A stretch of DNA of 27,816 nt from positions 1 to 27,816 of the forward strand of contig CAYMRT010000178.1 of NCBI GenBank assembly GCA_964392885.1. Direction: 5' to 3'. The notes under the pieces are model-generated. The model was not told where the DNA came from. It searched no databases and saw only the letters and a program-made list of their open reading frames with translations. The position numbers were made by a program, and so were the translations under genes. Numbering within the stretch: position 1 is the first letter of the stretch; each line of letters begins with the position of its first letter. Origin of the DNA: an uncultured Desulfobacterales bacterium. GTDB lineage: Bacteria; Desulfobacterota; Dissulfuribacteria; Dissulfuribacterales; QOAL01. Positions 8,416 to 27,816 of the stretch are shown here, piece after piece.

Positions 8416-11400
8416 ATGAATATTGCTGAATTTTCTATAAAAAAGAGTGTAATTACCTGGACATTAACCTTTGTCATGATAGTCCTTGGATATTTTGCCT
8501 ATCAAGGCCTTCCAAGGTTAGAAGATCCTGAATTTGCCATTAAGGAAGCTGTTATCTTAACCCCTTATCCTGGTGCATCTCCAAAGGAAGTCCAGGAAGA
8601 GGTAACAGAGGTAATTGAGAAGGCATGTCAGGAGATGGGTCAACTTAAAAGAGTTGAATCATATTCCATGAGAGGCATGTCTCTTGTCCATGTAATTATA
8701 AAAGATAAATACAGGAAAGATATTCTTCCGCAGGTCTGGGATGAGCTTCGGAGAAGAATGGCCGACTACGAACACGAGCTTCCTCCCGGAGCCGGACCTA
8801 TTACTGTTAATGATGATTTTGGCGATGTATATGGTGTTTATTTTGCCCTTGTTGGAGACGGCTATACCTTTGCAGAACTTAAAGAAGTAGCGGAGCTTCT
8901 TCAAAGAGAACTCCTGGTTGTTCAAGATGTAAAAAAAGTCGAGCTATTTGGTCTTAGAAAAGAGGCTATTTATGTGCAGATGTCAAGGACTAAAATGGCA
9001 GCCCTTGGCATTACTCAAAACGATATATTTAATGCACTTAAAGCAAAAAATCTTGCTGTTGACTCTGGGAGAATAAAATTTTCTACCCAGTATTTAGCCA
9101 TTAATCCCACAGGTGAATTTAAGTCAGAAAAAGACTTTGAAAATCTCTTCATTGCCTCAAAAGGCGGAAAGTTAATCTTTCTAAAAGATGTGGCTACAGT
9201 AACAAGAGGTTATGTTGATCCACCTCAAAAAATTTTAAGGGTTGATGGCAAGGAAGGAATTGGGATTGCCATTTCCACTGTGCTTGGCGGAAATGCAGTC
9301 ACAATGGGCAATGCAGTGCTTAAACGTTTGGATCAGCTAAAGGGGCAGATCCCAATTGGCATGGAATTAAAAGAAATATCCATGCAGTCAAAATCCGTTA
9401 CAGAAGCAGTAAATGGATTTGTAATAAACCTACTGGAATCTGTAGCCATTGTCATTGTAGTGCTTGCCATATTCATGGGCATAAGATCTGGAATGATTAT
9501 AGGCTTTATACTAATCCTTACAATTGCAGCAACATTTGTGGTAATGGGATATTATCACATTACACTTCAACGAATCTCTCTTGGAGCCCTTATCATCGCC
9601 CTTGGTATGCTAGTTGACAATGCCATTGTAGTGGTGGATGGCATGAAAAATAAAATGAAACAGGGAGTAGATGGGCTTCAGGCTGCAAAGGAAATTGTAA
9701 GCCAAAATGCAATGCCACTTCTTGCTGCCACTGCAGTTGCAATTATGGCCTTTGCCTCAATTGGAGGCATGTCAAATTCAACTGGTGAGTATTGCCAAAC
9801 ACTTTATTATGTGATTTTGATTTCTCTTTCCCTTTCCTGGCTTACTGCTGTTACAACCACTCCTCTAATTACTAAAAAATTTGTACTGAGCAAAAAGGAA
9901 TTAGCTGACAGCGCAGGAGGCCAAGAGGCATATGGAGGCAAATTCTATAAAATTTATAGAACCTTTCTTAGCTATGCCATTAAGTTTAGATGGGTGACAA
10001 TCGCTATTGTAGTTGGGCTTTTTGCTCTTTCTGTTTATGGCTTTGGATATGTAAAGCAACTGTTTTTCCCTGCATCAACCAGGCCTCAATTTATGGTTGA
10101 ATGCTTTTTTAGAGAAGGAATACACATTCTTGAAACAGAAAAGAAAATAGAAAAAATAGAACAATATCTAAAAAAACAGGAAGGTGTAACAATGGTTGCC
10201 TCTGCCATTGGCGGTGGGCATCCACGATTTTTGTTAACCTATTCAACACCTGTTGAAGGAGCGAATCAGTATTCAAGCATACTAGTTTCTGTAAAAGATT
10301 ACAGAATGATAGATGGAATGATTGGAAAGATTCAAAAGGATCTGGAAGACATGTTCCCAGATGCCTGCATAAATGTAAAAAAATTCAATCTTGGTCCTGC
10401 TACAGGAGGCAAAATCCAGCTTAGAATAAATGGCTATGATCCAGAGGTATTAAGAGAGTTGGCACAAAAGGCTGTTGAAATACTGAGAGCAGAAGGTGCA
10501 AAGGCAGTCAGAACAGAATGGGGCGAAAAAGTCAAAGTTCCCGTTCCTATTATTGCAGAAAATAGAGCAATGGCCCTTGGAATAACAAGACCAATGATAG
10601 CCAAGGCCATTGAGGCCAATTATTCCGGAGCAACAGTTGGTGTGTATAGAGAAGGGGTAAATCTTATTCCAATTATAGCCAGAGCCCCAGAATCAGAAAG
10701 AGATACCATTGAAGACCTTAAAGAGATCCAAATTTATAGTCCTGTTGCTAAACGATATATCCCAATTATGCAGGTACTAAATGGTATTGAAACAAGGTGG
10801 GAAAATGCCCGACTTTCACGCTGGCATAGACGACAAATGATAAAAGTACACGCAGACCCTAGAGACGAGCTACCAGCAGAACTTATGGCAAGAGTCAAAC
10901 CAATAATAGAACAAGCCCTTGGAGTGGATTTGGCTGCTTACAGAGGGAAACCACTTCAGGAAGGTGAAAAATGGACAGCCTCAACCATCCCTATAAAATA
11001 TGACGACATAATCCCACTTAAAGGCAAAACTGGTTACTTTATCGCATGGGGTGGCGAACTGGAAGACTCATCTGATTCCCAAAAACAGCTTGCTGCAAAT
11101 ATACCAATATATTTTGGCATGATGATACTTATAGTAATTTTTATGTTTAATGCCTTTAGACAGCCTCTTATTATCTGGCTCACAGTACCTCTTGCTTTAA
11201 TAGGAGTAACGGCGGGACTGCTTCTTCTAAAACAACCCTTTGGTTTTATGGCCCTTTTAGGTCTTATGAGCCTTTCAGGAATGCTTATAAAAAACGCAAT
11301 AGTGTTAATAGACCAAATAGACATAAATATCCGCTCAGGCATGAAAGGCATGGATGCTATCATTGAATCAGGTGTATCAAGGATGCAACCTGTTATGATG

Positions 11401-11556
11401 GCAGCACTTACTACCATGATGGGAATGATACCACTATTCCAAGATGCCTTTTTTGTATCTATGGCTGTTACAATAGTATTTGGCCTTGGTTTTGCCACCT
11501 TATTAACCTTAATATTTGTACCAGTGCTATATGCCACTTTTTTTAAGATCAAATGA
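8416..11556 (+). CDS. RND efflux permease (AcrB/HAE1-like)
   Basis: 1046 aa; LPRLEDPEF, TM4 ALGMLVDNAIVV, TM10 GMLIKNAIVLID and SRMQPVMMAALTT. Confidence 0.95.
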   Translation: MNIAEFSIKKSVITWTLTFVMIVLGYFAYQGLPRLEDPEFAIKEAVILTPYPGASPKEVQEEVTEVIEKACQEMGQLKRVESYSMRGMSLVHVIIKDKYRKDILPQVWDELRRRMADYEHELPPGAGPITVNDDFGDVYGVYFALVGDGYTFAELKEVAELLQRELLVVQDVKKVELFGLRKEAIYVQMSRTKMAALGITQNDIFNALKAKNLAVDSGRIKFSTQYLAINPTGEFKSEKDFENLFIASKGGKLIFLKDVATVTRGYVDPPQKILRVDGKEGIGIAISTVLGGNAVTMGNAVLKRLDQLKGQIPIGMELKEISMQSKSVTEAVNGFVINLLESVAIVIVVLAIFMGIRSGMIIGFILILTIAATFVVMGYYHITLQRISLGALIIALGMLVDNAIVVVDGMKNKMKQGVDGLQAAKEIVSQNAMPLLAATAVAIMAFASIGGMSNSTGEYCQTLYYVILISLSLSWLTAVTTTPLITKKFVLSKKELADSAGGQEAYGGKFYKIYRTFLSYAIKFRWVTIAIVVGLFALSVYGFGYVKQLFFPASTRPQFMVECFFREGIHILETEKKIEKIEQYLKKQEGVTMVASAIGGGHPRFLLTYSTPVEGANQYSSILVSVKDYRMIDGMIGKIQKDLEDMFPDACINVKKFNLGPATGGKIQLRINGYDPEVLRELAQKAVEILRAEGAKAVRTEWGEKVKVPVPIIAENRAMALGITRPMIAKAIEANYSGATVGVYREGVNLIPIIARAPESERDTIEDLKEIQIYSPVAKRYIPIMQVLNGIETRWENARLSRWHRRQMIKVHADPRDELPAELMARVKPIIEQALGVDLAAYRGKPLQEGEKWTASTIPIKYDDIIPLKGKTGYFIAWGGELEDSSDSQKQLAANIPIYFGMMILIVIFMFNAFRQPLIIWLTVPLALIGVTAGLLLLKQPFGFMALLGLMSLSGMLIKNAIVLIDQIDINIRSGMKGMDAIIESGVSRMQPVMMAALTTMMGMIPLFQDAFFVSMAVTIVFGLGFATLLTLIFVPVLYATFFKIK

Positions 11557-13943
11557 TAAAGCCTAGGAGTTTAAATATGACCGGCCTTTTTCGATTAGTA
11601 TTTATTTTTGTAATTTTTACAGGGCTTACAGTTTCAAAAGGCCTTTGTTTAAAGAGCTGCAATGTAGATATTGGCCCTAAAAAAGTAAGGATAGGGATTC
11701 TAACTGATGGACTGACACCAAAAGATAAATCGTTAGTGCAGCTTTACAAAAAAGAAATAGTAAATGTATTCGAACCTGAAATTCAAGTTGAATTTTGTAA
11801 GAACTGGATAATTTCTGCCAAAGGTACATTAAAAGGAGCAAAAAGAGGGTTAAAGAGGCTGTTAAATTCTAATTGGCCTCAAATGATCCTTACACTTGGC
11901 GTAATCTCGTCAACTGCCGCTATAAAATATAGGAATTTAAATAAACCTGTTATTGCCCCATTTATACCTGCCTTTCTTCTTAAAAAAAACGGCAAGATTC
12001 AAATAAAAAATTTTGCCTATATTGATGCGGTCTATTACTTAGAAAAGGACATAAAGACTTTTAAGAAAATTACACCCTTTAAAAAATTGGCAATAGTTCT
12101 TGATAAAAGGGAATACAATCTAATTAAAAACCTCAATATTGTATCAAAAGAACTTGAAAACAGGCTCAATATCAACATTCATCTTGTTTCTGCAGATTCA
12201 TCAGCCAATCAAGTAATTGATAGTATTCCAAAAGAGGTCGAAGCTGTTTTAATAGGTCCACTTTTTCATATTAATGAGCCAGAAGAAAAAAGACTTTACA
12301 GCCTTTTCATCAAAAAAAGATTACCTGCTTTTGCCCTTTGGAATACTCGGCAAGTTCAACTGGGACTCCTTGCATGCGTTGAAGACAAAGATAAAGATCT
12401 CTCCATTGCAAGAAGAAGTGCTGTTGCCCTGTTAGATATACTTCATGGACAACCGCCAGAAAAACTAAAGATAAAGTTTGTAAGAACTCAGCAGCTAACC
12501 ATTAATATGGATACAGCAAGAAGGCTTAATATTTATCCAAGTCTTTTGATACTTACTGGTGCAAACCTGTTAAACAACAAAGAAGAAGATATAAAAAGAA
12601 GACTAAACATAAAAAAAGCTGTAGAAGAAGCGATTGAAGCCAATCTTAGGCTTCAGGCAGCACGTGTCTCAGTAAGCGTTGAAAAATATAGAGTAAAAGA
12701 GGCCATGTCTGCTCTTCTTCCAAGAGTTGACATTGAAACAGGCTATAGGGCAGTGGATCAAGACAGAGCCAAGTCTGCCTCTGGCCTTAGTCCAGAAAGG
12801 GCATGGACAGGGTCTGCCAAAGGTTCTGTGCTTCTTTATTCAGAAAAAAAATGGGCACAATTTACAGCTCAAAAGCATCTTGAGCTTGCCCAGCAAATGA
12901 GGCAGCAAATAGTAAAACTTGACATCACTTATGACGCATCTGTAGCCTATTTAAATGTTTTAAGAGCAAGAACTATTGAGCGCATATATAAGGAAAATCT
13001 TGATCTTACAAAGGCAAATCTTGAACGGGCTCAAATAAAGGTTGCTACCGGAGCGGCAGGCCCTGATGAAGTTTATAGATGGGAATCTAAATTTGCATAC
13101 GACAGAAGATCAGTTCTTTATAAAGAATCTGAAACCATGGATGCCATGCAGGCACTTAATAGGATCCTTCACAGACCAATTGATGAGCCATTTATTCCAG
13201 AAGAAGCTAGCCTTAAAGACCCATTATTCATAATGGGAGATAAATTCTATTTCAAACTAATGGAGAATCCCATTTATTTTAGAAAATTTAAGGCTTTTGC
13301 AACTAAAGAAGCAATGAAATTCAGACCAGAGCTTCATGCAATATCTTATGCCATTAAGGCAAAGGAGAGATTACGGACTGCTGCAAAACGTGAAATTTGG
13401 CTTCCTGACTTCACCATCGACTGGAAAGTGGACCAATATCTTGCAGAAGATGGACACGGCAGAAGAGAAGGAACTTTATTTGATGACACCGACTGGAGCA
13501 TTGGTGTGTTTGCTAGAATTCCACTTTTTGAAGGAGGTAAAACTGTTGCAAAGGCCGGGCGGCTTCAAGAAGAGGTTTCAAAACTTGAGATAGAAAAAAA
13601 TGCACTCATAGAAGCAATTACCCAACATGTGCTTTCAGCAATCAACAAAACAAGGGCATCTTATCCATCAATAATTCTTACCAAAGATGCAGAAGAAGCT
13701 GCCAGAAAAAATCTTGAGTTAATAACTGATTCCTACATTCATGGGATAAAAAATATTATAGATCTTTTAGATGCCCAAAACCAATATTTAAATGCTAGAC
13801 TCGATTCTGCAAATGCTGTTTATAACTTTTTAATTGATTTTATGGGGGTTCAACGGGCAATGGGTGAATTCTTTATCTTTATGCCAGATGATATGCGTAT
13901 CCAATGGATGAATAGAATAAAAAATGAGTTAGGCTTAAATTAG
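11553..13943 (+). CDS. TolC-family outer-membrane factor with N-terminal ABC substrate-binding-like domain
   Basis: 796 aa. From about residue 351: LNIKKAVEEAIEAN, ALLPRV, YLNVLRA, WLPDF, IPLFEGG, IIDLLDAQ (OEP repeats). Residues ~40-330 end in LTINMDTARRLNI, typical of the ABC_sub_bind family. Confidence 0.85.
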   Translation: MIKPRSLNMTGLFRLVFIFVIFTGLTVSKGLCLKSCNVDIGPKKVRIGILTDGLTPKDKSLVQLYKKEIVNVFEPEIQVEFCKNWIISAKGTLKGAKRGLKRLLNSNWPQMILTLGVISSTAAIKYRNLNKPVIAPFIPAFLLKKNGKIQIKNFAYIDAVYYLEKDIKTFKKITPFKKLAIVLDKREYNLIKNLNIVSKELENRLNINIHLVSADSSANQVIDSIPKEVEAVLIGPLFHINEPEEKRLYSLFIKKRLPAFALWNTRQVQLGLLACVEDKDKDLSIARRSAVALLDILHGQPPEKLKIKFVRTQQLTINMDTARRLNIYPSLLILTGANLLNNKEEDIKRRLNIKKAVEEAIEANLRLQAARVSVSVEKYRVKEAMSALLPRVDIETGYRAVDQDRAKSASGLSPERAWTGSAKGSVLLYSEKKWAQFTAQKHLELAQQMRQQIVKLDITYDASVAYLNVLRARTIERIYKENLDLTKANLERAQIKVATGAAGPDEVYRWESKFAYDRRSVLYKESETMDAMQALNRILHRPIDEPFIPEEASLKDPLFIMGDKFYFKLMENPIYFRKFKAFATKEAMKFRPELHAISYAIKAKERLRTAAKREIWLPDFTIDWKVDQYLAEDGHGRREGTLFDDTDWSIGVFARIPLFEGGKTVAKAGRLQEEVSKLEIEKNALIEAITQHVLSAINKTRASYPSIILTKDAEEAARKNLELITDSYIHGIKNIIDLLDAQNQYLNARLDSANAVYNFLIDFMGVQRAMGEFFIFMPDDMRIQWMNRIKNELGLN

Positions 13944-15890: not shown

Positions 15891-16563
15891 AATCCCTATA
15901 AGATATAGCTTTCACAATTTACTTATATGGCTTTTGATTTATCTTGTTGCCTCCCCATTTCTTCAGGCTGGAAGCCATGCATCTTTACTACTCACAGCAT
16001 TTATCTCTTTGGTCTTCTTCTTTGCAGTATGGACAATTCAAAAATATCAAGGATACTTTAAGATATCATTAATATTACTTCTTTTAACATTAGGTCTATT
16101 GTGGTCATCAACCTTTAAAATAATATCATTTCCGCCACTTATGTATTCTATCATATCATTATGCTATTTACTGGTTCTAGTATTTACATTTGGAAAATTT
16201 GTATTTAGTGCAAAAGTAGTTGACTCAAGTCTTATTTGCGCAGCCCTTTGTCTTTATCTTTTAATTGGCATCATTTGGGGGATTTGTTATGAGGCGCTTG
16301 AAATTATTTATCCTGGCTCTTTTCAAGGGGCAGCGATTAATTCATCCCTTTCATCTGTTGAGATTAGACAAAAATTTACCTATTTTAGTTTTATTACATT
16401 AACGACCTTAGGTTATGGAGATATTACTCCCAAATCCCCTCAGGCCTTTGCCCTTTGCCAGACAGAGGCTATTATAGGCCAATTTTTTATGGCTGTGCTA
16501 GTTGCGCGCCTTGTAGGCATCCAAGTAAGTCAACAGTTCTCAAATAAAGACCATGAAAGATAA
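15880..16563 (+). CDS. Potassium channel family protein (Ion_trans_2 pore domain)
   Basis: YFSFITLTTLGYGDITP selectivity filter preceded by several TM helices. Confidence 0.88.
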   Translation: MRIKIPIRYSFHNLLIWLLIYLVASPFLQAGSHASLLLTAFISLVFFFAVWTIQKYQGYFKISLILLLLTLGLLWSSTFKIISFPPLMYSIISLCYLLVLVFTFGKFVFSAKVVDSSLICAALCLYLLIGIIWGICYEALEIIYPGSFQGAAINSSLSSVEIRQKFTYFSFITLTTLGYGDITPKSPQAFALCQTEAIIGQFFMAVLVARLVGIQVSQQFSNKDHER

Positions 16564-17194
16564 CATTACAAAAGACTTACTTCTCTGTCCTAACTGTGAT
16601 CTTGCAATAAAACCGCAACCTGTTAAACCTGGCAATGTACTTATATGTCCCAGATGCGCTACTCCAATACTAGCACCAGTAAACAACAGCATTGAAAAAA
16701 CACTAGCCTTAAGCCTTACAGGACTGATTTTATTTATACCAGCTATCTTTATGCCTCTTTTAACATTCGATGTAATTGGCCTTGAATCATCAGGAAGCAT
16801 CTTTGATAGTGCCATAGCACTTTTATCCTCTGGATTCTATTTCACAGGATTAGCAGTGCTTCTTACAAGCATCATTATTCCAATAACTAAGCTTTCCATA
16901 CTCTTTGTGGTATCCTTTCAGCTTTATGTAAATAGTGCTACAAAAATTACTGCCCTTTTATTTAGATTTTATAAACACATAGATGAATGGGGAATGCTAG
17001 AAGTCTATATGATAGGCATCTTAGTCACCATTATAAAAATGTTACATTTAGCAAAAATTCATTATGATATAGGCTTTTTTTGCTTTATTGCACTACTGAT
17101 TGCTACAATCAGTTCATCTTTATTTTTAGATTCAAACCACTTCTGGGAAAAAATCCATGAGCAAAGAACTAAAGGCAGAAAGCTACAAAGCTAA
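16553..17194 (+). CDS. pqiA: Paraquat-inducible protein A (PqiA-like), first copy/half
   Basis: CPNC...CPRC, LILFIPA...P, WGMLEVYMIGILVTIIKM. Confidence 0.88.
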   Translation: MKDNITKDLLLCPNCDLAIKPQPVKPGNVLICPRCATPILAPVNNSIEKTLALSLTGLILFIPAIFMPLLTFDVIGLESSGSIFDSAIALLSSGFYFTGLAVLLTSIIIPITKLSILFVVSFQLYVNSATKITALLFRFYKHIDEWGMLEVYMIGILVTIIKMLHLAKIHYDIGFFCFIALLIATISSSLFLDSNHFWEKIHEQRTKGRKLQS

Positions 17195-17807
17195 AAGCAA
17201 TTACCCTAAAACAGGAAAAGAGTTGGGCCTTGCACTTTGTCATGACTGCCATCTGGTAATTGATATGTCTAATCAGAAAAAACAGCATGCCATATGCCCT
17301 AGATGTTTTGCATCTGTGCATTTCAGAAAGCCAAACAGCATCACACATACTTGGGCGCTTCTTATAACTTCATTTCTTCTGCTTTTCCCAGCAAATCTGC
17401 TTCCTATAATGAAAGTAGAATTTATGGGCTCAACAGATGCATCAACTATAATGGATGGGATTATTTATTTTTTTAAAGAAGGCTCCTATGGCATTGGATT
17501 TGTTATTCTTGTAGCAAGCATCCTTGTACCACTTTTTAAGATAATAGGAATTTGCCTGATACTTTTATCTCTTCACTTTAAATGGCAAACCTGGCTAAAG
17601 CACAAAACACTTATGTTTAGATTTATAAAATTTATTGGACGCTGGTCAATGTTAGACATATTTGTAATTGCTCTTCTTACTGCCTTGGTAAATTTTGGTT
17701 TTTTTACAACTATTCAAGCAGCACCTGCAGCACCATTTTTCTGTATGGTGGTCATTACTACAATGCTAGCAGCAGAAAGATTTGATACGAGATTAATCTG
17801 GGATTAG
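17157..17807 (+). CDS. pqiA: Paraquat-inducible protein A (PqiA-like), second copy/half
   Basis: CHDC...CPRC, RKPNSI..TWALL, PANLLPIM, IGRWSMLDIFV and FDTRLIWD. Confidence 0.9.
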   Translation: MSKELKAESYKAKSNYPKTGKELGLALCHDCHLVIDMSNQKKQHAICPRCFASVHFRKPNSITHTWALLITSFLLLFPANLLPIMKVEFMGSTDASTIMDGIIYFFKEGSYGIGFVILVASILVPLFKIIGICLILLSLHFKWQTWLKHKTLMFRFIKFIGRWSMLDIFVIALLTALVNFGFFTTIQAAPAAPFFCMVVITTMLAAERFDTRLIWD

Positions 17808-17946: not shown

Positions 17947-18049
17947 CATTGTTGGGGCATTTACCCCTGCTGGTCCCTCTGTACCATCTCCAACAAAGAC
18001 GACCAACATACCCACCTCCATCCTTCTTTAAACCAGCAGGGGTTTTTTT
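17947..18049 (+). ncRNA. Candidate ~100-nt small RNA with C-rich loop and intrinsic terminator
   Basis: Promoter above; perfect 12-bp stem ACCCCTGCTGGT (17963-17974) / ACCAGCAGGGGT (18032-18043) followed by a T7 run (18043-18049); 57-nt loop with 24 C and 3 G. The 5' end is estimated. Confidence 0.55.
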
Positions 18050-20450
18050 ATTCTTTTTGCTTGTCTTTGTCTTCTTCTCTGGCAAGCTTTGATAAGTACT
18101 TTATTTCCTTATCAACAAGATAAAAAAGCGTACCTTCTGGATAATTACCTTTTTCGTCAATCTCGCCTGCCTTAAGCCCTGTTAATATTTCAATACCTTC
18201 TTCAACGGTTTCTATTGACCAGATATGAAATCTTTCTTTTTTTACAGCCTCTATTACCTCATCTTTTAAGGTAAGATTCCTTACATTTGCACTTGGGATT
18301 ATCACACCTTGGGTACCTGTCAACCCTTTTGCATGACAAAGATCAAAAAAGCCTTCTATCTTTTCTGTAACGCCTCCAACAGGCAAAATTTCCCCTTTTT
18401 GACTGACAGCTCCAGTGCAAGCAATATCTTGTCTTAAAGGTATTTTTGACAATGCAGATAAAAGCGCAAAAAGCTCTGCACTTGAAGCCGAATCTCCATC
18501 TATCATGCCATAGCTTTGCTCAAAACATATGGTAGCAGTTAAACTTAAGGGCTTGTTGTGAGCAAATCTAGAACGCAAATATCCTGCAAGTATCATCACT
18601 CCTTTGGTATGAATCTTCCCGCTTAATTCCGCCTCTCTTTCAATATTTATAACACCTTCTTTACCTAAACTGATATTTACTGTTATTCGAGAGGGCTTAC
18701 CAAAGGTTGTATCTCCCAAATCATAAACTGCAAGACCATTTATTTGGCCCACTGCCTTTCCTTCTGTTTTTATCTTGATTATCTCTTTAACCAAAAGCTC
18801 TTGGAGATGCTCTTGATAAAGAGCTGAACGATATTTTCTCTCTGATATTGCTTTTTGTACATGAAGATTGTTTATAAATGGATCTTTTTGTTTCTCTGCC
18901 CAAAAATTTGCTTCAATCATCAAATCTTCAAGGTCTGTTATCTTTAAAGAAAGCTTTTCCTTTGAGTGAGATAATTCTGTGGCGTATTCAATTAACCTCG
19001 CAACACCAGAACGATGAATGTCTTTGAGTCTGTTCTTTTCCCGCAAATTGGAAATAGCCCTTATAAGCTCCTTTTGTCTTTGAGCATTATTGTCTGTTTC
19101 AGTGTCTAGATGTGACTTTATCTTAAAAAGCTCTTTAAAATCCTCATCATAATTGTAAAGAAGCTGATATATGATTGGATCTCCCATTAAAATTATCTTT
19201 ACATCTAAATCAACCGGCTCTGGTTTGAGTGTCTTTGTAGTAAAGAGACCAAGTTGTTCACCAAGATCTTCTATTTCGAGCTTTTTAGTCCTAAGGGCCC
19301 TTTTTAACGCCTCATAAGCAAAAGGTTTTTTTAAAAGATCAACTGCCTTTAACAACAAAAAACCGCCATTTGCCCTATGAAGGGCACCTGCTTTTATCAT
19401 GGTAAAGTCTGTAAAGAGTGCCCCAAACTGTGCCTGTCGCTCTATTACTCCAAAAAGATTGGTATAGCTTGGATTTGCCTCAAAAACAAACGGCCTGCCT
19501 TTAGCCTTTGAATTGTCAACAAGCACATTAACCTCGTATCTTGCAAAACTAGGAGTCATGCCCGGCATAGGAAAAGGGAGCCCTGGCATAGGGGCCTTTT
19601 GAGGCAAAAAGTCTTTAAAATGAATTACAACATCTTCAAGCACATCATCAAAATACTCTTTAAGCTTTGGATATCTTTCATATTTTCGTTTTAAAGGATC
19701 AATGAGGATCTGAGCTGTCTGACGGGCAACTTGCCTATCCAGCTCTTTAAGCTTTTGCCTTACCTCTTGCTCAAGCTGATGGACCTGACGCATGGTGGCG
19801 CCCATCTCTCTATGTAGTTCTTCGCTTTTGCGCTTTAATTCATCTTGCTCTTCCTTTGTAAGGCGATTTATTTCTTCAGGAGTTAAAGGGCTGCCATCTT
19901 CTTTGGCTGGAATTACCATCATTCCTGTAGGATCAGCCTGAAGTAGAAAATTTTTGGCTCTAACCTTTTTATCTAACTCTTCAAAAGCCTCAGTGCGCCT
20001 TTTATTAAATTCTCTAATAACCTCTTCCTTAGATACAAGATAGGTCTCACCTTCAAAGCTTTTAGGCATATGAAGCTTTAAGTTATCGACAAATTCCATC
20101 ATGTCTTTTTTCAGTTGAATGCCAAAGCCCTTCTCTAACTGCACTGCACGAGGTACATCAGGATTTTTAAAATTATAAATGTAACAGAGATCTCTTGGGG
20201 TGTGATCTTCACTTTCAACTAATTCCTCAAGCTTTGAAATAGCTAAATCTAGAGCACCTGCTTCTTGAAGACCTGCTACATAGCAGTTAAATCCTGCATT
20301 TTTAATCCCAAGTCCAACGTCTAGTGCCCTTTCAGCTCGTTCCTGTGCAAAAACACTTGAATGACTTGGGGCATATTCACTGACAAATTCAAAATCTAAT
20401 TCCTCAGAATCTACAAACAATCTCAACTTATCTGCTGTTAGCTTCTCCAT
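18048..20450 (-). CDS. Lon-family (LonC-like) protease with degenerate AAA module
   Basis: GQINGLAV, PSRIT, IEREAELSG.IH.KG, FEQSYG.IDGDSAS (catalytic Ser), PVGGVTEKIEGF (catalytic Lys), GVIIP..N. AGGAAGGT RBS. Confidence 0.9.
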   Translation of the reverse strand: MEKLTADKLRLFVDSEELDFEFVSEYAPSHSSVFAQERAERALDVGLGIKNAGFNCYVAGLQEAGALDLAISKLEELVESEDHTPRDLCYIYNFKNPDVPRAVQLEKGFGIQLKKDMMEFVDNLKLHMPKSFEGETYLVSKEEVIREFNKRRTEAFEELDKKVRAKNFLLQADPTGMMVIPAKEDGSPLTPEEINRLTKEEQDELKRKSEELHREMGATMRQVHQLEQEVRQKLKELDRQVARQTAQILIDPLKRKYERYPKLKEYFDDVLEDVVIHFKDFLPQKAPMPGLPFPMPGMTPSFARYEVNVLVDNSKAKGRPFVFEANPSYTNLFGVIERQAQFGALFTDFTMIKAGALHRANGGFLLLKAVDLLKKPFAYEALKRALRTKKLEIEDLGEQLGLFTTKTLKPEPVDLDVKIILMGDPIIYQLLYNYDEDFKELFKIKSHLDTETDNNAQRQKELIRAISNLREKNRLKDIHRSGVARLIEYATELSHSKEKLSLKITDLEDLMIEANFWAEKQKDPFINNLHVQKAISERKYRSALYQEHLQELLVKEIIKIKTEGKAVGQINGLAVYDLGDTTFGKPSRITVNISLGKEGVINIEREAELSGKIHTKGVMILAGYLRSRFAHNKPLSLTATICFEQSYGMIDGDSASSAELFALLSALSKIPLRQDIACTGAVSQKGEILPVGGVTEKIEGFFDLCHAKGLTGTQGVIIPSANVRNLTLKDEVIEAVKKERFHIWSIETVEEGIEILTGLKAGEIDEKGNYPEGTLFYLVDKEIKYLSKLAREEDKDKQKE

Positions 20451-20463
20451 TTTATATACCTTC

Positions 20464-21453
20464 CTAACCTATCCTCTTTACTCCCAGATGTTTATAGGCC
20501 TTATCTGTTGCCATGCGTCCTCTTGGCGTTCTGTGAAGATAACCTGCCTGCACAAGAAAAGGCTCATATACCTCCTCAATTGTATGACTGTCTTCTCCAA
20601 TAGTTACAGCAATTGTATCAAGCCCAACAGGCCCTCCATTAAATCTATTAATTATTATAGAAAGAATTTGTCTATCCATTTTATCAAGTCCTTCTTTGTC
20701 AACTTCTAGCATGGATAAAGCTTCATCTGCCACCTCTTTGGTAACGACCCCTCCCGCCTTTACTTCTGCATAGTCTCTCACCCTCCTAAGCAAACGGTTG
20801 GCAATCCTTGGAGTTCCTCTTGAACGCCTTGCTATTTCAAGCGCACCTTCCTGATCTATTTTGACTTTAAGGACTCTTGCAGAACGAAATACAATCTCTT
20901 TGAGTTGCTCATCTGTATAAAAATCCACCCTTAATATCACTCCAAACCTATCTCTAAGAGGTGGAGATAAAAGCCCTGACCTTGTAGTTGCACCAATCAT
21001 TGTAAACCTTGGCAAGTCTATCTTTATAGTTCTAGCACTTGGACCTTGCCCAATTATCAAATCCAACTGAAAATCCTCCATTGCTGGATATAATATCTCT
21101 TCTACAGAAGGACTTAACCTATGAATCTCATCTATGAATAAGATCTCACCACTTTGAAGATTTGTAAGTATGGCAGCAAGATCTCCAGGACGCTCTATTA
21201 CCGGGCCAGATGTACACCTAATTCCAACCCCCATCTCTTTAGCAATAATATGAGCCAAAGTGGTTTTGCCAAGACCAGGATGACCATGGAGAAGACAATG
21301 ATCAAGAGGTTCTTTACGCCTTTTGGCAGCTTCAATAAAAAGAGCAAGACCTTTTTTAAGTTCTTCCTGGCCAACATAATCTCTAAGCCTCTGTGGCCTA
21401 AGAGTTGGCTCTAAAAACACATCTTCTTCTTGCAGTGACGGTGATAAAGGCAT
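20464..21453 (-). CDS. ruvB: Holliday junction branch migration helicase RuvB
   Basis: LRPQRL.DYVGQ, Gx[39 protein letters not shown] and TPRGR. Confidence 0.98.
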
Positions 21454-21455
21454 AA

Positions 21456-22088
21456 TTATCTAACCTTAGATAAAAGATTTAAAGAGGCCTTAATTAAATC
21501 ATTTAGTCCAATATTGCCCTGACTTGCAAGTACCTGTTTTACAACACGTTTTGATTCTGCAGGCTTATACCCTAAATTTAAAAGTGCAGATACAGCATCA
21601 TCTACTATCTCTTCAGAAGGCCAATAACTGTCCTGAGCAGACTTTCTCTTTCCCGTTTCCACACTGGCGTTTTTCTTATTAAGAAGTTTGACAGCCTTTT
21701 CTTTAAGATCAACACAAATTCTTGCAGCAGTCTTTTTACCTACTCCATGCACTGACCGCAACCGGACCGGGTCTCCCCTTGAAATATCTTCTAAAAGAGA
21801 GCTTGGTGACAAAACTGAAAGGATGTTTAATGCAACACGCGGACCTACTCCAGACACCTCAAGAAGCACCTTAAAAAGCTCAAGCCCCTCTTTGTCCATA
21901 AATCCATAAAGGCTGATGTGATCATCCTTTATTATCAAATGCGTAAATATAGTTACTGTATCATTGTTGGGAGATAAAGTGCTAAGACTTGTCTTTGGCA
22001 TCTGTATTTCATAGCCAATTCCATTTACTTCAACTAAGACAGTGGAATCATCTACTTCTATTATTTGCCCCTTGATAAAGCCAATCAC
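21456..22088 (-). CDS. ruvA: Holliday junction branch migration protein RuvA
   Basis: GTG start; [30 protein letters not shown] and ALLNLGYK. Confidence 0.96.
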
Positions 22089-22094
22089 CTGACA

Positions 22095-22610
22095 TCACCT
22101 TGCTACATTTATAGAAATAAACTTTGTTAATTGCATGCTTTGAATATGACAAAGAGCCACCGCCAAGGCATCTGATGCATCTTTCGGATATGTCTTTTTA
22201 AGATTTAATATAAGAGATACCATATGCTGCACCTGTTTTTTTTCAGCCCTGCCATAACCGACCACTGCCTTTTTAATTTCAAGAGGTGAATATTCATAAA
22301 CAGGCAGACCGCTATTTAGAGCTGCCATAATCAGTGAAGCCCTAGCGTGTCCTAACTTTAAGGCTGATTTTACATTCTTGGCAACAAAGACGTCTTCAAT
22401 TGCAAAGGCAACAGGTTTAAACTCATGTATAATATTTGAAATCTCATCATATAGATATTTTAGTTTTGCTGGAAAGGCTAGGTTTGAACTGGTACGTATA
22501 ACTCCTGCATGAACTACCTTTAAATTATTGCTGCCTTTCTGCCAGACAATACCAAAACCCGTTGCAACAGAGCCTGGATCAATTCCAAGTACAGGCCCTC
22601 TATTGACCAT
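22095..22610 (-). CDS. ruvC: Crossover junction endodeoxyribonuclease RuvC
   Basis: LGIDPG, AIEDVF, LKLGHAR, IKKAVVGYGRAEK.QV and DASDALAVA. Confidence 0.97.
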   Translation of the reverse strand: MVNRGPVLGIDPGSVATGFGIVWQKGSNNLKVVHAGVIRTSSNLAFPAKLKYLYDEISNIIHEFKPVAFAIEDVFVAKNVKSALKLGHARASLIMAALNSGLPVYEYSPLEIKKAVVGYGRAEKKQVQHMVSLILNLKKTYPKDASDALAVALCHIQSMQLTKFISINVAR

Positions 22611-23359
22611 TAGGCTACCTTTTGAAGGATCTCTTCTGGAATATCAAAATTGGCATATATATTCTGCACGTCATCATTTTCTTCAAGGGCATTCATCAAT
22701 GCAATTAGTTTTTGAGCCTGATTTTCATCCTCTACCTTTACAATATTTGTTGGTACCATAGTAACTTTTGCAGAAAGAAGCTCAAGCCCCTTATCTTCAA
22801 GGGCCTTTTTTACCTTTGAAAGCTCTTCTGGAGCTGTCTCAATCTCCCATTCGGTGCCACTGTCTTTTATATCATCTGCCCCTGCTTCAAGACAGGCATC
22901 CATTAAAGTATCTTCATCAACCTTATCTTTTTCAACAATTATCAATCCCTTCTTTTCAAATATCCAGGCAACACTTCCTGGCTCACCCAAATTCCCTCCC
23001 CTTTTAGCAAAAATATGCCTTACCTCCGCAACTGTTCTTTGACGATTATCAGTAATAGTCTCAACTAAAACTGCAACGCCGCCAGGACCATAACCCTCGT
23101 AAGTAACCTCTTCATATGCGACACCTTCTAATTCACCTGTCCCCCTTTTTATTGCCCTTTCGATATTGCTCTTTGGCATATTTTGGGCCTTAGCTGACTC
23201 AATAGCAGCTCTAAGCCTAGGATTTGCAGCAGGATCTCCACCACCTAATCTTGCAGCAACAGTTATTTCTTTGATAAGCTTTGTAAAAATCTTTCCCCTT
23301 TTTGCGTCTTGTGCTGCCTTTTTATGCCTTATTGTGCTCCATTTTGAATGTCCAGCCAT
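22610..23359 (-). CDS. yebC: YebC/PmpR family protein
   Basis: [44 protein letters not shown]; canonical position upstream of ruvC. Confidence 0.97.
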
Positions 23360-23408
23360 TTAATGCCTCCAAAATTATTTTTCAATAATTTAAGGGGGTA
23401 AAATTTTA

Positions 23409-24776
23409 TCAAAAACGGCTAATCTTTTCAAAAAACTCTTGAAGATCTCTTTTCAAAAAATTTTGTGCCTTTTTAAGATTCTTTTTATGTCTTAGCCATA
23501 CCTGTTGCCTTGCATTCTTCTCTATAAGCTCAGATACCTTCCCCTTTACTCTATGCCAGAGATCTCTTTCAAACGCATCTTCAAGCTTTACAAGATCGTC
23601 GGGATTTTCACTAAAATTTTTCACTAAATTTGGGAAAGTGATCTTTTGAAAATATACTGAACCCATGCCTACAACAAGCAGTAACCAAATAATCGGCCAC
23701 AAAAGGGTGTCTATAGAAAAATTCCCAGAAACAGTTGAAACAACAAGAGGATCTGAAGGGTAACCTAAAAACAAGTTCATAACTAAGTCGCCCAAAATAA
23801 AGGCCAAAAGTGCAGAAATTCCAACTGCCTTACCAAAGCCCTTTAATTTCTTTGTAAAAATGGATTTAAAACCATCCATAGCCTTTATAATAAGAGACAG
23901 CTCTCTAACAGACTTATCCACTTCTTGTAACATATGAAAAAGACGCATTCTTGGTGCATCTAAAAAAGCCTTTTTAAGTTCTTCTCTTTCCTTATCCCAT
24001 ATCTCAAATCCTTGCGGGATCTTCCTGCCAGGTATCTTGGCATACGTTAAATAAATTCTTGGGATGTCCTTTCTGCCTGTCATTTGAGACAGATTCCAAC
24101 AAAGCGTTCCATATGCCCTAACCAAATCCTCAAGGTTAGCACACTCATCTACCCTATTCATTACAAAGGCAACCCTGTCTTCCCCTGTTGTAGCAGGAAG
24201 GGTAATTCTTATCACCTGATATGTCTCTTTAATAGTCCCGGCCTTATGCGGATCAAACATTAGCACAATTAAGTCTGCAATCTTTGCAAGCTCCCCTATT
24301 ACTCCTAGGTAATCATATCCTCTATCTTTTTCCGTAACAGAATCTAGCATGCCAGGGGTATCGATAATGGCTATGTCAGCCAGATGTTCTACATCTACCT
24401 TTTTCATAACAAGATGAGCTAGAAGTTTTTCTCCAAACCTGCGCAAGCATCCAAAAGGAAGCCTTTCATCGCTAACTATAGAATTGCCAGTCAAGTCTCC
24501 TGGTGCTTCTCCTGCTTCCGGTGCGGTAATGATGGTAAAACTGTCATCTGTAGGTGCCTGACCAGTTCGCTGAATATCCATTCCTAAAAATTCATTTATA
24601 AACGTTGATTTACCAGAAGAATAATTTCCAATAACAAGAACAATCGGTTTCCATTTTAATGGGGTAAGGAGTTCTTCTATGCTACAAAAATAACTGTCAT
24701 AGATTTTACCCAACCTTTCAGGCAAAATACGCTCGATTTCCCTTTTTAACTCAACTGCACTTATATTACCTGCCAT
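23409..24776 (-). CDS. Dynamin-superfamily, EHD/sarcalumenin-like NTPase with C-terminal transmembrane hairpin
   Basis: G1 GNYSSGKST, PTDDSF, G3 IIDTPG, RGYD, FDPHK, G4 NRVD, LVRAYGTLCWNL; two hydrophobic segments at about 23650-23830. AAGGAG RBS. Confidence 0.85.
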   Translation of the reverse strand: MAGNISAVELKREIERILPERLGKIYDSYFCSIEELLTPLKWKPIVLVIGNYSSGKSTFINEFLGMDIQRTGQAPTDDSFTIITAPEAGEAPGDLTGNSIVSDERLPFGCLRRFGEKLLAHLVMKKVDVEHLADIAIIDTPGMLDSVTEKDRGYDYLGVIGELAKIADLIVLMFDPHKAGTIKETYQVIRITLPATTGEDRVAFVMNRVDECANLEDLVRAYGTLCWNLSQMTGRKDIPRIYLTYAKIPGRKIPQGFEIWDKEREELKKAFLDAPRMRLFHMLQEVDKSVRELSLIIKAMDGFKSIFTKKLKGFGKAVGISALLAFILGDLVMNLFLGYPSDPLVVSTVSGNFSIDTLLWPIIWLLLVVGMGSVYFQKITFPNLVKNFSENPDDLVKLEDAFERDLWHRVKGKVSELIEKNARQQVWLRHKKNLKKAQNFLKRDLQEFFEKISRF

Positions 24777-24807
24777 TTTGGCTACTCCTTGGTATTTAGC
24801 TTTTAGG

Positions 24808-24835
24808 ATTCTATAAACATAAAGATAACTTGCAA
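24808..24835 (-). promoter_or_regulatory. Possible sigma70 promoter for the dynamin gene
   Basis: Minus strand TTGCAA, 16-nt spacer, TAGAAT. AT-rich context weakens the call. Confidence 0.35.
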
Positions 24836-24900
24836 TGAATTTTTTTTAAATAGAATAAAATACAAAGAAGAGATTTTTGAAAGGGAAACTTAAAGAATTA

Positions 24901-25857
24901 TTACAGAACTATGGTGCGATCTCGTCCCTGATTTTTAGCCATATAAAGGGCTTTATCCACCCGTTCAAGGGCATGTTCTATATCTTCCTTAGGCTCAACT
25001 TGAGTTACTCCCAATGAAATTGTTAATTGGATATAATTACCTGAAGGATCTATTACAAACTTATAGTTTTTAACCTTTCTTCTTAAACGTTCTGCTAATT
25101 GGAAAGCCTCTTCTTTAATAGTATGGGGAGCCATAATTATAAATTCTTCTCCACCATATCTATAAATTGAATCAGAATCTCTAATCATTTCCTTCCATAT
25201 GTTAGCCAAATTTTGGAGGATTTTATCTCCTGTCTGATGGCCATATGTGTCATTGATCTTTTTAAAATGATCAATATCGCACATTATAAGTGAAAGGGGA
25301 TAATTATATCTTCTAATCTTTGAAAGTTCTTTTTTTAAATCTGCTTCAAGGGCCCGCCTGTTAAAAAGATTTGTAAGAGGATCAATTCTTAATCTACTTC
25401 TCAATTCATCTATTATCTTAGCTTGCTCATTGATCTTTTCTTCTGTTTCTTTAGTCTTTGCCTCAAGGGTCTTATTTATTACTAATAGTTTGGCTATATC
25501 TTCATAAAAGATATTTTCTTTATCTTTTTCATCTAAAGATTGTAGGGAATTTTTCATATCGCTTACTTGCTCTTTAGTTACCTGGACAAAATCTTCAACT
25601 GTATCCTTCACGCCCTCTAAAATATTTTCTGTATCATCCATAAATTTTTGAAGCAGTTTGTAGGTAGTTTCATCAAAATTGCTTTTTTGTCCAATTAATA
25701 AAGTAAGATTTTGGGATTTTGCCACATGCCAAAATTCCTTAGAATATACGTCAGGCCAAGGTAAATTGCCCTTGTTGACCAAGTTTTTTAAAGCTGTTCT
25801 TGCAGTATGAGCCACTTGCTCTGCCAGCTTTTTTTTGATACTTGTTTCGCTTTCCAT
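24901..25857 (-). CDS. Diguanylate cyclase (GGDEF domain) with N-terminal helical/coiled-coil region
   Basis: DPLTNLFNRR, DIDHFKKINDTYGH..GD, RDSD (RxxD I-site) five residues before GGEEF, ADxALY-like VDKALY.AK..GR. Confidence 0.95.
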   Translation of the reverse strand: MESETSIKKKLAEQVAHTARTALKNLVNKGNLPWPDVYSKEFWHVAKSQNLTLLIGQKSNFDETTYKLLQKFMDDTENILEGVKDTVEDFVQVTKEQVSDMKNSLQSLDEKDKENIFYEDIAKLLVINKTLEAKTKETEEKINEQAKIIDELRSRLRIDPLTNLFNRRALEADLKKELSKIRRYNYPLSLIMCDIDHFKKINDTYGHQTGDKILQNLANIWKEMIRDSDSIYRYGGEEFIIMAPHTIKEEAFQLAERLRRKVKNYKFVIDPSGNYIQLTISLGVTQVEPKEDIEHALERVDKALYMAKNQGRDRTIVL

Positions 25858-25923
25858 TTAATAATCCACAAACAAAGTAGTAGACACTTATCTATACTTT
25901 TATATCGAAAAATTAACCAATTC

Positions 25924-25950
25924 AATAAAAAAGGGGGCATTTGCCCCCTT
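25924..25950 (-). terminator. Rho-independent terminator after the barrel gene
   Basis: Minus strand AAGGGGGC-AAAT-GCCCCC followed by TTTTTTATT. Confidence 0.85.
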
Positions 25951-25976
25951 CATCTAAGCTAGATTATAGCCATGGG

Positions 25977-27815
25977 CTAGAAGCTATAGCTTATATACCC
26001 CATAAACAATGAGGTGGTTGAACCCTGATCGCCATATACATAAGGCTCATTGTCATCAAAATAATAAAGGGTGTAATTTAAGGTTAAGCCTAAACCATTA
26101 GACATCCTATAGGTTGTTCCAATATTAAAGTCAAGCTGTTTGTACTCAAGATCTGAGTACTTATCGATAGAATTTAGATAAGCCACATCGTAAAGATGAG
26201 GCATATCTGGATTTACTGCTGAGACATCAAGATCTAACTTGGCATCGCCGGTTGGATACATGCTGTCAAAATTCAACTCGCTAATATTTCCACGGCCAAT
26301 AGTAAATGCCAAATCAGTTGTAAAGCTCCAATTTGGTAAAATAAAATAGGAGATGTTTGCGTTGATGGTATGAGCCTCTGTCCTATAATCCATATCGGTA
26401 TGTTCGGAACCAAACTGGTCCGTTGTAATGAAGTTGCCTCACCCATCGTAGATGGCTATACAATACTGTGACTCGTATTTGTCATACATATATGTATAGC
26501 CAGCACTTACAACTAAGTCTTTAATAGGCGTAAGAGTTCCACTAAAACCAGCAACTATAAAGTCTTGCTGCCAATCGCGTCCATCCACATCATCATTTTG
26601 AGCATATTTATATTTTATGAAAAAGCTAGTATTTAACATGTGGAGTGGATGCCAATGGCTCTTGAGTTGAATCTCATGAACTTGACTCGGTAAATTTGAA
26701 CGAGCAGCAGTTCTTGCCCCATAAATTGCGGGTTCATAAGCTCTTTCAGTTACATAAAGGCCTGCAGGGAGTCCTGCATATTCACCATAACTACCATCTG
26801 GAGTACACTCAGCCTCATAAAGCATGTAAGGATCATCTATATACTCAAATTTATAATCAAAGTCGAATTTGAGATTATGATTTACACGCCAATCTGTATT
26901 AAGGCTAAATATGTGCTCTTTGGTTGATTCGGTAACATTGTGATGTTTATAGTTATCTCTCTTTTCACGCTTAAACTCATATCCAGCAGCAAGCTTTAGC
27001 CCTCTCATTATACGCCATGTTATATCTGCACCAATTTCATAGGTATTGCTGTCATAACCAGAGTAGCGAGTTTCTTCTTCTTCAAAATAAGACCAACCGC
27101 TCTTGGAAATATAACCCTCAGACAGGGTTACTCCGCCACCAGGGGCTCCTGAAGGATTATTTCTTACATTCTTTTTAATATCGACATTGTCATTGTCTAG
27201 CTCTTGATATTTTCCAAAAATATTAATGGAAATCGCCTTAGTAATTCTGCTATGAAAGCGGGCATTAAAAATGCTGCTGTCAAGGTCAAGCTCTTCTCCA
27301 TATTTGCCAGCAAGTATGTCATAAGGATCATCAACAGATTTATTAGTAGCCTCAGAAAACACATAGTTGGCTACGAAGGTATTGTTGGCGTTAATATCCC
27401 AACGGAACTTACCCTTATAAGTATCTTTAGTTGAGTCAGGGGTGCGGCTATAAGGCAACTCACCAGTAGTGCGATCGTACTGGAGCCTGTTTAAAAACAA
27501 CCCTTTTCCTTTTAAACCGTTATAGACGTTTGTTAAGTCTTCATTGTCTGCTTCAAATTCCCTGTGCATATAGGCAAATTCAAAGGCCATTGTGCCAACT
27601 CTTAAACTCAGCTTTGGAGAAAGATCATTGGTCTTTTCATTAATTTCCTGGGCCCTAGACACTATATGACATGCCAAACACTTGCTGTTTGTCATTGCCT
27701 GCTTATGGCCCTTTCTCTGCTCATATCTATGATTAAAGCTAAATTTAAGTTCGGGAATTTGTGGAATATTTACCTTAAACTCCTGATTCAAAAGGGATCT
27801 TTTTATCTCAAACAT
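25977..27815 (-). CDS. MtrB/PioB-like outer-membrane beta-barrel with CxxCH motif and in-frame UGA (putative selenocysteine); GSU2204-family-like; probably 5'-truncated
   Basis: ORF 26439..27815 ends in TGA (26441-26439). The same frame stays open for 15 codons (GNFITTDQFGSEHTD) into ORF 25977..26393, which ends in the barrel beta-signal GYISYSF. CLACH at 27666-27680. The family name is recalled from NCBIfam, not searched. Confidence 0.8.
26405..26422 (-). promoter_or_regulatory. Putative bacterial SECIS element
   Basis: mRNA reads UGA, 16 nt, then CGGA-CCA-GUU-UGG-U-UCCG: a stem with a bulged U and an apical loop starting with G, 23 nt from the UGA. Confidence 0.7.
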
Positions 27816-27816
27816 T

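Follow-up and report, generated by a model that had tools for sequence, protein, structure and literature searches.

An in-frame TGA read as selenocysteine joins two open reading frames of a probable OmcL-type outer-membrane barrel gene in an uncultured Desulfobacterales bacterium

Background

Does the TGA at positions 26441-26439 of contig CAYMRT010000178.1 end a gene or does it encode selenocysteine (Sec) inside one? This contig belongs to assembly GCA_964392885.1 of an uncultured Desulfobacterales bacterium, and the whole stretch of 27,816 nucleotides (nt) that was analysed is called the window here. A first-pass annotation, made from the letters alone, had proposed that a UGA-encoded Sec joins two open reading frames (ORFs) of the minus strand into an outer-membrane beta-barrel protein of an electron-transfer conduit. 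In bacteria, Sec is inserted by SelB-dependent recoding of UGA at a hairpin located downstream of the codon. We conclude that the TGA encodes Sec and fuses the two ORFs into one protein, and that the region 27815-25977 (-) is very probably the 3' 78% of a single OmcL-type (GSU2204-family) gene, encoding a 26-strand MtrB-like barrel with one CXXCH motif and one Sec.

Results and discussion

One reading frame interrupted by a single TGA

Translation of the window showed that the minus-strand frame from 27815 to 25980 contains one internal stop only, the TGA at 26441-26439, and that the fused frame reads ...YESQYCIAIYDG-TGA-GNFITTDQFGSEHTDMDYRTEAH...GYISYSF-TAG, with TAG (25977-25979) as the true stop codon. 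The first part of the gene (26442-27815, -) comprises 458 codons up to Gly458 and has its 5' end cut at the edge of the window and of the contig; the UGA (26439-26441, -) corresponds to residue 459 of the window-encoded part, or approximately residue 634 of the full precursor; and the second part (25980-26438, -) adds 153 codons. The junction peptide of the fused product is ...YCIAIYDG-U-GNFITTDQFGSEHTDMDYR. ORF finders divide this frame into 26439-27815 (458 amino acids, aa) and 25977-26393 (138 aa), and the coordinates given in the first-pass annotation for the single frame, free of a second stop and divided by its ORF track, were all confirmed. About 175 N-terminal codons, including those of the signal peptide, are absent from the window, homologues being about 175 residues longer; these residues and the upstream partner gene are missing because the gene runs off the end of the window and likewise off the single other public contig found with the omcL locus, which begins at the same base as the window copy. 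The lineage of this copy is low in GC (37%) and uncultured, and its nearest relatives are metagenome-assembled genomes of the Desulfobacterota/Thermodesulfobacteria type.

The same codon in related genes

As the first-pass annotation had recommended, homologues were aligned and inspected for Cys or TGA at the column of the putative Sec, using 49 related loci taken from species-representative genomes. The codon at this column is TGA in 32 loci, TGT or TGC in 12 and GGA in one, and in the 32 TGA loci the frame continues after the TGA with conserved sequence (GNFITTDQFGSEHTDMDYRTEAHT and variants). The 12 Cys-form loci, which read ..EG-C-GGG.. at this place, are distant and labelled as Aminicenantes, Acidobacteriota, Clostridia, Eubacteriales or 'uncultured bacterium'. 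Fused products that are complete at both ends have 717-810 aa, with a signal peptide, and a C-terminus of the aromatic-x-Phe type occurs in the Sec forms and in several Cys forms.

Protein databases give the same picture from the other side, as all 31 protein homologues of part 1 (40-90% identity) end with ...YCIA[IL]YDG at the same stop and the 25 homologues of part 2 all stand in the databases as ORFs of their own, about 138 aa long. A profile search over 1.84 billion cluster representatives (50% identity) recovered 405 relatives; among the best 150, which were classified, 103 end exactly at the column after the Gly, four clearly read through with Cys and two with Gly. The TGA column in the 32 loci and in 103 of these 150 clusters, together with the hairpin covariation described below, bears out the proposal that a UGA-encoded Sec joins the two ORFs. 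TGA is also the ordinary stop codon of four of the 26 other window genes, and the standard genetic code therefore applies.

The Gly-form relatives look like natural 'Sec-loss' variants. Locus L031 (JALTHG010000025.1) has GGA at 7351-7353 and keeps the CXXCH motif and both loop cysteines considered below, but only a degenerate hairpin; clusters P0067 and P0097 keep CXXCH and, among the loop cysteines, only that of loop L9. Another cluster, P0113, ends at the Sec column and has no CXXCH motif.

A conserved hairpin downstream of the UGA

The hairpin CGGACCAGUUUGGUUCCG, whose core is CGGACCA-GUU-UGGU(U)CCG, lies at 26422-26405 (-), after a 16-nt spacer (26438-26423), and its apical loop starts at 23 nt from the UGA. 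For the bacterial Sec insertion sequence (SECIS), PMC13188914 (Fig. 2) gives a consensus with a loop of 3-9 nt, an upper stem of 4-16 base pairs (bp), a UGA-to-loop distance of 16-37 nt, a G in the first two loop positions that is usually followed by G or U, and a minimum free energy of -7.5 kcal/mol or lower. The window element has a 3-nt loop, GUU (5 nt when the A-U closing pair is open), and a 7-bp stem with one bulge; its loop starts with G-U, and the 16-nt spacer plus the 7-nt stem arm make up the 23 nt, all within the consensus.

Taken alone, the window's own hairpin is marginal. The 32-nt segment folds with a free energy of -7.1 kcal/mol and a z-score of -1.95 (ViennaRNA), its pair probabilities are mostly about 0.55-0.6 and fall to 0.3-0.4 for two A-U pairs, and a 66-nt single-sequence fold around the UGA is no better than shuffles (z -0.46). 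A Rfam search of 25900-26700 at a permissive E-value returned chance small-RNA matches only and no SECIS family.

Comparison with relatives makes the hairpin clear. The helix (alignment columns 20-26 with 30-36) has 87% of its cells paired across the 19 aligned Sec forms, and compensatory changes are found in four of the seven pairs, such as those from CCA/UGG to CCG/CGG and from GGACC/GGUUC to CCCCC/GGGGG; the covariation score was reached by none of 500 shuffles and collapsed when the 3' partners were shifted. The first loop base of these 19 forms is an invariant G and the second is U in at least 90%. All 17 Sec forms that were folded have the hairpin at the same site (mean z -2.39), with energies from -6.7 to -14.4 kcal/mol, 16 of them between -8.0 and -14.4 and the remaining one, L036, at -6.7; it is absent at that place from the 13 Cys and Gly forms that were folded (mean z +0.06).

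The G-first hairpin that the first-pass annotation had placed 16 nt after the UGA, within the bacterial consensus, is thus upheld, whereas the bulged U cited in its support is particular to the window sequence: it comes from a Ser codon UCC instead of UCG, and most relatives have an unbroken 7-bp stem. Like the Escherichia coli fdhF/fdnG-type SECIS and the bSECISearch consensus, the element is a hairpin that closely follows the UGA inside the reading frame, with a G-U loop start, 23 nt to the loop and a 7-bp upper stem; unlike the fdhF SECIS, it is short and weak (about 18 nt, -7.1 kcal/mol) and no lower stem was detected.

Family membership and barrel fold

The window-encoded part 1 matches NF041027, 'GSU2204 family CXXCH-containing (seleno)protein' (GSU2204_Se_pt_1), with 388.4 bits (E 6.5e-116; cut-off 350), residues 2-458 aligning with profile positions 142-580 of 580, and the model ends at the UGA; part 2 is covered by no family model. 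The Pfam family MtrB_PioB (PF11854) is also found, with 59 bits against a cut-off of 23. The score for TIGR03509, the MtrB/PioB subfamily, is 27.4 bits against a cut-off of 240, and we regard the protein as one that would work as an MtrB-type sheath while belonging to a probable sister family of TIGR03509.

The two halves were modelled separately with AlphaFold2 (AF2), the 90%-identical cluster representative P0001 being used for the N-part and the window's own sequence for the C-part. The models contain 21 and 5 long strands, 26 altogether, and part 2 comprises the rest of loop L11 and strands 22-26. The best Protein Data Bank match of the N-part (Foldseek, P0001) is MtrB, 6r2q_B, with an E-value of 9e-12 and a template modelling (TM) score of 0.55; the MtrB barrel in the 6R2Q study reportedly has 26 strands as well. 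Counting strands from the periplasmic N-terminus and from the C-terminus leads to the same arrangement of 13 loops and 12 tight turns. The first-pass description of a GSU2204-family barrel in the outer membrane, belonging to an electron-transfer conduit, was supported. So was its remark that only the fused product carries the beta-signal, GYISYSF (25980-26000, -): the Y-S-F C-terminus was confirmed and part 1 alone has none.

A c-type haem-binding motif, CLACH (27666-27680, -), would fall, on the AF2 strand map of P0001, in L4, the loop joining strands 7 and 8; the corresponding S-K-C-x-x-C-H does not vary among the 29 aligned family members, Cys forms included. On the modelled strand map, an HxLxHD motif would lie in L3, Cys337 (A-E-C-T-P; 26805-26807, -) in the long loop L9, and Cys452 (26460-26462, -), seven residues before the Sec, in L11 with the Sec itself, in reply to the earlier suggestion that a structure model be used to place these two residues. 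Strand parity in the models would put all of them on the long-loop side of the barrel, conventionally that of the cell surface.

The window protein shares with GSU2204/OmcL of Geobacter sulfurreducens and its family, which includes HS1_RS02765 of Ca. Desulfofervidus auxilii (the 'OmcKL conduit'), the CXXCH motif, the Sec/Cys column at the end of the model and the MtrB/PioB-like barrel; a further likeness, the upstream GSU2203/OmcK decaheme cytochrome, is known for the window copy's related loci only. Nothing sets it apart in kind, the window copy being low in GC, truncated by the contig and marked by a one-base bulge in the SECIS stem. The 26-strand barrel and, in the related loci of OmcL, an upstream DmsE/MtrA-family decaheme are common to MtrB (MtrCAB, 6R2Q chain B) and PioB/MtoB; unlike these, the OmcL copy is far below the TIGR03509 cut-off and an MtrC-like gene is not adjacent in most related loci. 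We know of neither a haem motif nor Sec in MtrB. ExtKL, a multihaem cytochrome selenoprotein (NF040886), is likewise a catalogued selenoprotein of Geobacter-type extracellular electron transfer (EET) gene clusters and stands in the same review table, but it is soluble or periplasmic and not a beta-barrel, and its family and Sec context are unrelated.

Other readings of the TGA

Every database entry is split at the TGA and ATG 26393 is conserved as Met in many relatives, as would be expected of a true gene boundary between a short porin and a separate 138-aa gene starting at this ATG. We consider such a boundary extremely improbable. The Cys forms read straight through the column as one protein of 720-810 aa; no GGAG-like motif is present in the 25 nt upstream of ATG 26393, as the first-pass annotation had indicated when it described this ATG as lacking a Shine-Dalgarno sequence, and many other window genes have one; and the 45 nt between the TGA and this ATG evolve as coding sequence, with 18, 17 and 57 substitutions at the three codon positions. 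Part 1 alone would moreover have 21 strands and no beta-signal; part 2 adds strands 22-26 and the terminal Phe. Scanning of the minus strand within 25700-27816 found no terminator after the TGA; the sole terminator-like site in this range is a strong intrinsic terminator, GAAGGGGGC-AAAT-GCCCCCTTT followed by a T run (25921-25951, -), which has a 9-bp stem with six G-C pairs and lies 26 nt past the TAG, between the barrel gene and the downstream GGDEF gene (24901-25857). A pseudogene, or a TGA created by a sequencing or assembly error, has nothing in its favour except the in-frame stop itself, and we give it practically no credence, as 32 independent assemblies share this TGA, as do 103 divergent clusters, and strong purifying selection acts on both sides of it.

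The UGA might also be read through without selenium, by a near-cognate Trp, Cys or Gly tRNA or in a reassigned code, with the hairpin as a generic read-through stimulator; the three family members with Gly at the column (GGA in L031) and the fact that Sec machinery was not seen in the window or the fetched flanks are in agreement with this. A reassigned code is ruled out by the window genes that terminate with TGA. Distant homologues have Cys, the hallmark of Sec/Cys pairs, the hairpin has its SelB-type G-U loop at the canonical distance and is lost where Cys replaces Sec, and the NCBI curators, like two reviews, regard the family as selenoproteins, so that read-through of this kind appears highly improbable. 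Some observations do weigh against reading the codon as Sec. The window and the fetched flanks showed none of selA, selB, selC and selD: ARAGORN detected no tRNA-Sec in the 27.8-kb window or in 39 loci, and Pfam scans of 20 window ORFs, with the Pfam families of genes 20464-25857 on locus L050, yielded housekeeping, efflux and repair genes only and no sel genes, so that the presence of the machinery in the genome is assumed. The energy of the window hairpin is 0.4 kcal/mol short of the -7.5 kcal/mol threshold, which is within the error of the energy model, and no experiment on the selenium of this family was found in the searched literature.

The decaheme partner and the family in the literature

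Wherever a related locus extends far enough upstream, a same-strand gene of 300-360 aa with ten CXXCH motifs stands directly before the barrel gene. Its product scores 446 and 399 bits with NF041028, 'GSU2203 family decaheme c-type cytochrome', and 252 bits with the DmsE family, and no gene for an MtrC-like surface cytochrome is adjacent in most related loci. In most Desulfobacterota-type loci (L001:4460-5461 and its equivalents in L002-L032), this OmcK-like decaheme bears a lipobox-type signal for lipoproteins (..[LIVF]x[GA]C). Its model scores are DmsE/MtrA-like, which suggests a barrel-inserted partner, where PMC10553843 takes it to be an 'extracellular cytochrome'. In the nearest locus that is complete, genes for FdhD, the formate dehydrogenase sulfurtransferase, and MobB (L001:2408-3936) stand just upstream of omcK and omcL.

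In G. sulfurreducens, GSU2203 is OmcK and GSU2204 was annotated as 'cytochrome c family protein, putative', and OmcK and GSU2204 were induced 2.4-2.7-fold with hematite (PMC4070692); induction of OmcK/OmcL has been reported on hematite/magnetite. Murali et al. named the pair the OmcKL conduit and found its expression in HotSeep-1 four-fold above that of OetABI, with no mention of selenium (PMC10553843). The 'OmcL' of one Geobacter paper proved to be the OrthoMCL algorithm and not the protein.

Two selenoproteome reviews, of 2022 and 2026, include the family among selenoproteins with one Sec and give it neither a redox motif nor a function. The main text of Zhang & Gladyshev 2008, to which the family is attributed, leaves it unnamed. 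The window gene is therefore a further member of a family already catalogued as selenoprotein, by a curated NCBIfam model and by both reviews, and the novelty that the first-pass annotation had attached to the gene was rated too high.

Loop cysteines and the proposed C-x6-U motif

The first-pass annotation had paired the Sec with the Cys seven residues upstream into a C-x6-U motif able to form a selenenylsulfide. In the 29-sequence locus alignment, Cys452 and Cys337 are jointly present in 19 sequences and jointly absent from 10, independently of Sec: L031 has both loop cysteines with Gly at the Sec column, L036 has Sec with neither, and both are missing from the Cys forms. Of the 103 Sec-form clusters, 53 have the -7 Cys, 37 of them together with the L9 Cys and 16 without it; nine clusters have the L9 Cys only and 41 have neither, giving an odds ratio of 10.5 (p 1.4e-7, uncorrected for phylogeny). 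Since the -7 Cys is present in only 53 of the 103 clusters and is independent of Sec, C-x6-U is a feature of a clade. As a family-defining motif it is ruled out by its absence from 50 of 103 Sec-form clusters, from L036 and from all Cys forms. The Cys at 26462-26460 is confirmed, and the motif holds for the window's clade only.

Could a Cys452-Sec459 selenenylsulfide nevertheless be the redox centre that defines the chemistry of this protein? Cys452 is invariant in the window's clade and shares loop L11 with the Sec, and the 16 Sec-form clusters that have the -7 Cys and no L9 Cys would agree with a pairing that does not involve L9. We consider this doubtful, as the -7 Cys is missing from the forms just listed, is retained in L031 where Sec has become Gly, and co-varies with the L9 Cys, and as the selenoproteome review gives the family no redox motif. 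A C337-C452 disulfide or a three-residue relay fits Cys452 at least as well as a family redox motif and is the better reading; an interaction between Cys and Sec may nonetheless occur within the window's clade.

Proposed assembly and role of the Sec

Under the mechanism that we propose, SelB carrying Sec-tRNA(Sec) would bind the hairpin while the ribosome is on the UGA, and Sec would be inserted. Without selenium or SelB, translation would stop and leave a 21-strand fragment unable to close the barrel, to which part 2 would otherwise have supplied the last five strands and the C-terminal beta-signal. With the OmcK-type decaheme encoded upstream, as known from related loci, the barrel would form a porin-cytochrome conduit like MtrAB or PioAB, the decaheme being threaded through it; this conduit role is proposed because of the homology to MtrAB and the conserved synteny. 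More speculatively, loops L3, L4, L9 and L11 may fold over the outer mouth of the barrel, where the barrel-bound haem and the selenol might constitute the terminal redox site of the conduit in place of an MtrC-type surface cytochrome and, in the window's clade, Cys452 and Cys337 might act as a disulfide or resolving pair.

These elements can be combined in a tentative proposal, to which we attach a low probability, that OmcL is no passive sheath: the surface haem of L4 and the selenol of L11, with Cys452/Cys337 resolving, would form a redox or catalytic site fed by OmcK, making the protein a self-contained outer-membrane terminal oxidoreductase, possibly Se-Fe ligated, that replaces MtrC-type cytochromes and whose assembly depends on selenium. 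Several results count against this functional part. L031, P0067 and P0097 keep CXXCH with Gly at the Sec column and the Sec-form cluster P0113 has no CXXCH, so that haem and Sec are not strictly coupled; the modelled loops have a predicted local distance difference test (pLDDT) score below 50; the separately modelled halves give strand counts and no Sec-to-haem distance; and L4 and L11 lie 14 strands apart on the barrel.

In a closer association, the Sec (or Cys) would bind the barrel-bound c-type haem as its distal axial ligand, so that the haem is His/Sec-ligated; this appears unlikely. The CXXCH motif and the Sec/Cys column are the two near-universal redox-capable features on the same side of the barrel, their Gly-rich flanks (DG-U-GN, EG-C-GG) would suit a loop reaching into the site, and a native Sec-ligated P450 has been reported (PMC11703216). 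Yet two other near-universal His residues (HxLxHD, in L3) could be the ligands, and the positions of L4 and L11, about half a barrel apart, are unfavourable. Because of these spare His residues, of the Gly forms with a haem motif and of the one Sec form without it, Sec-Fe ligation is less likely than a surface redox site.

Other genes of the window

The remaining window genes are ordinary ones, among them those for NadA, LolA, DAHP synthase, a resistance-nodulation-division (RND) efflux system, NhaA, PqiA, a Lon-like protease and RuvABC, and also for YebC, a dynamin-like GTPase and a GGDEF protein. The RND efflux operon encodes HlyD, AcrB and OEP proteins (7318-8406, 8416-11556 and 11553-13943, +), and its outer-membrane factor of 796 aa (11553-13943) is an unusual fusion with a PF04392 ABC substrate-binding-like domain (residues 109-328) before the TolC-like OEP. 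PqiA is encoded by two overlapping one-domain ORFs in different frames (16553-17194 and 17157-17807, +), for which a natural split or a frameshift is possible. The Lon-like protease (18048-20450, -; 800 aa) is of the LonB/LonC type (AAA_32, LonC_helical, Lon_C) and its gene adjoins ruvB.

Significance

The OmcL/GSU2204 family is itself already known. All the public calls that we retrieved split the gene into two ORFs, as the first-pass annotation had foreseen of standard annotation, and describe the products as hypothetical proteins of about 630 and 138 aa. Porin-cytochrome surveys and metaproteome databases consequently contain OmcL in truncated form and have no means of finding the junction peptide. 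EET papers treat OmcKL as a highly expressed candidate conduit of syntrophic sulfate reducers, and one of them searched for it by name. When the selenoprotein catalogues and the EET literature are joined, this conduit would depend on selenium for its outer-membrane step, and the barrel would carry a haem of its own and a selenol on its outer loops.

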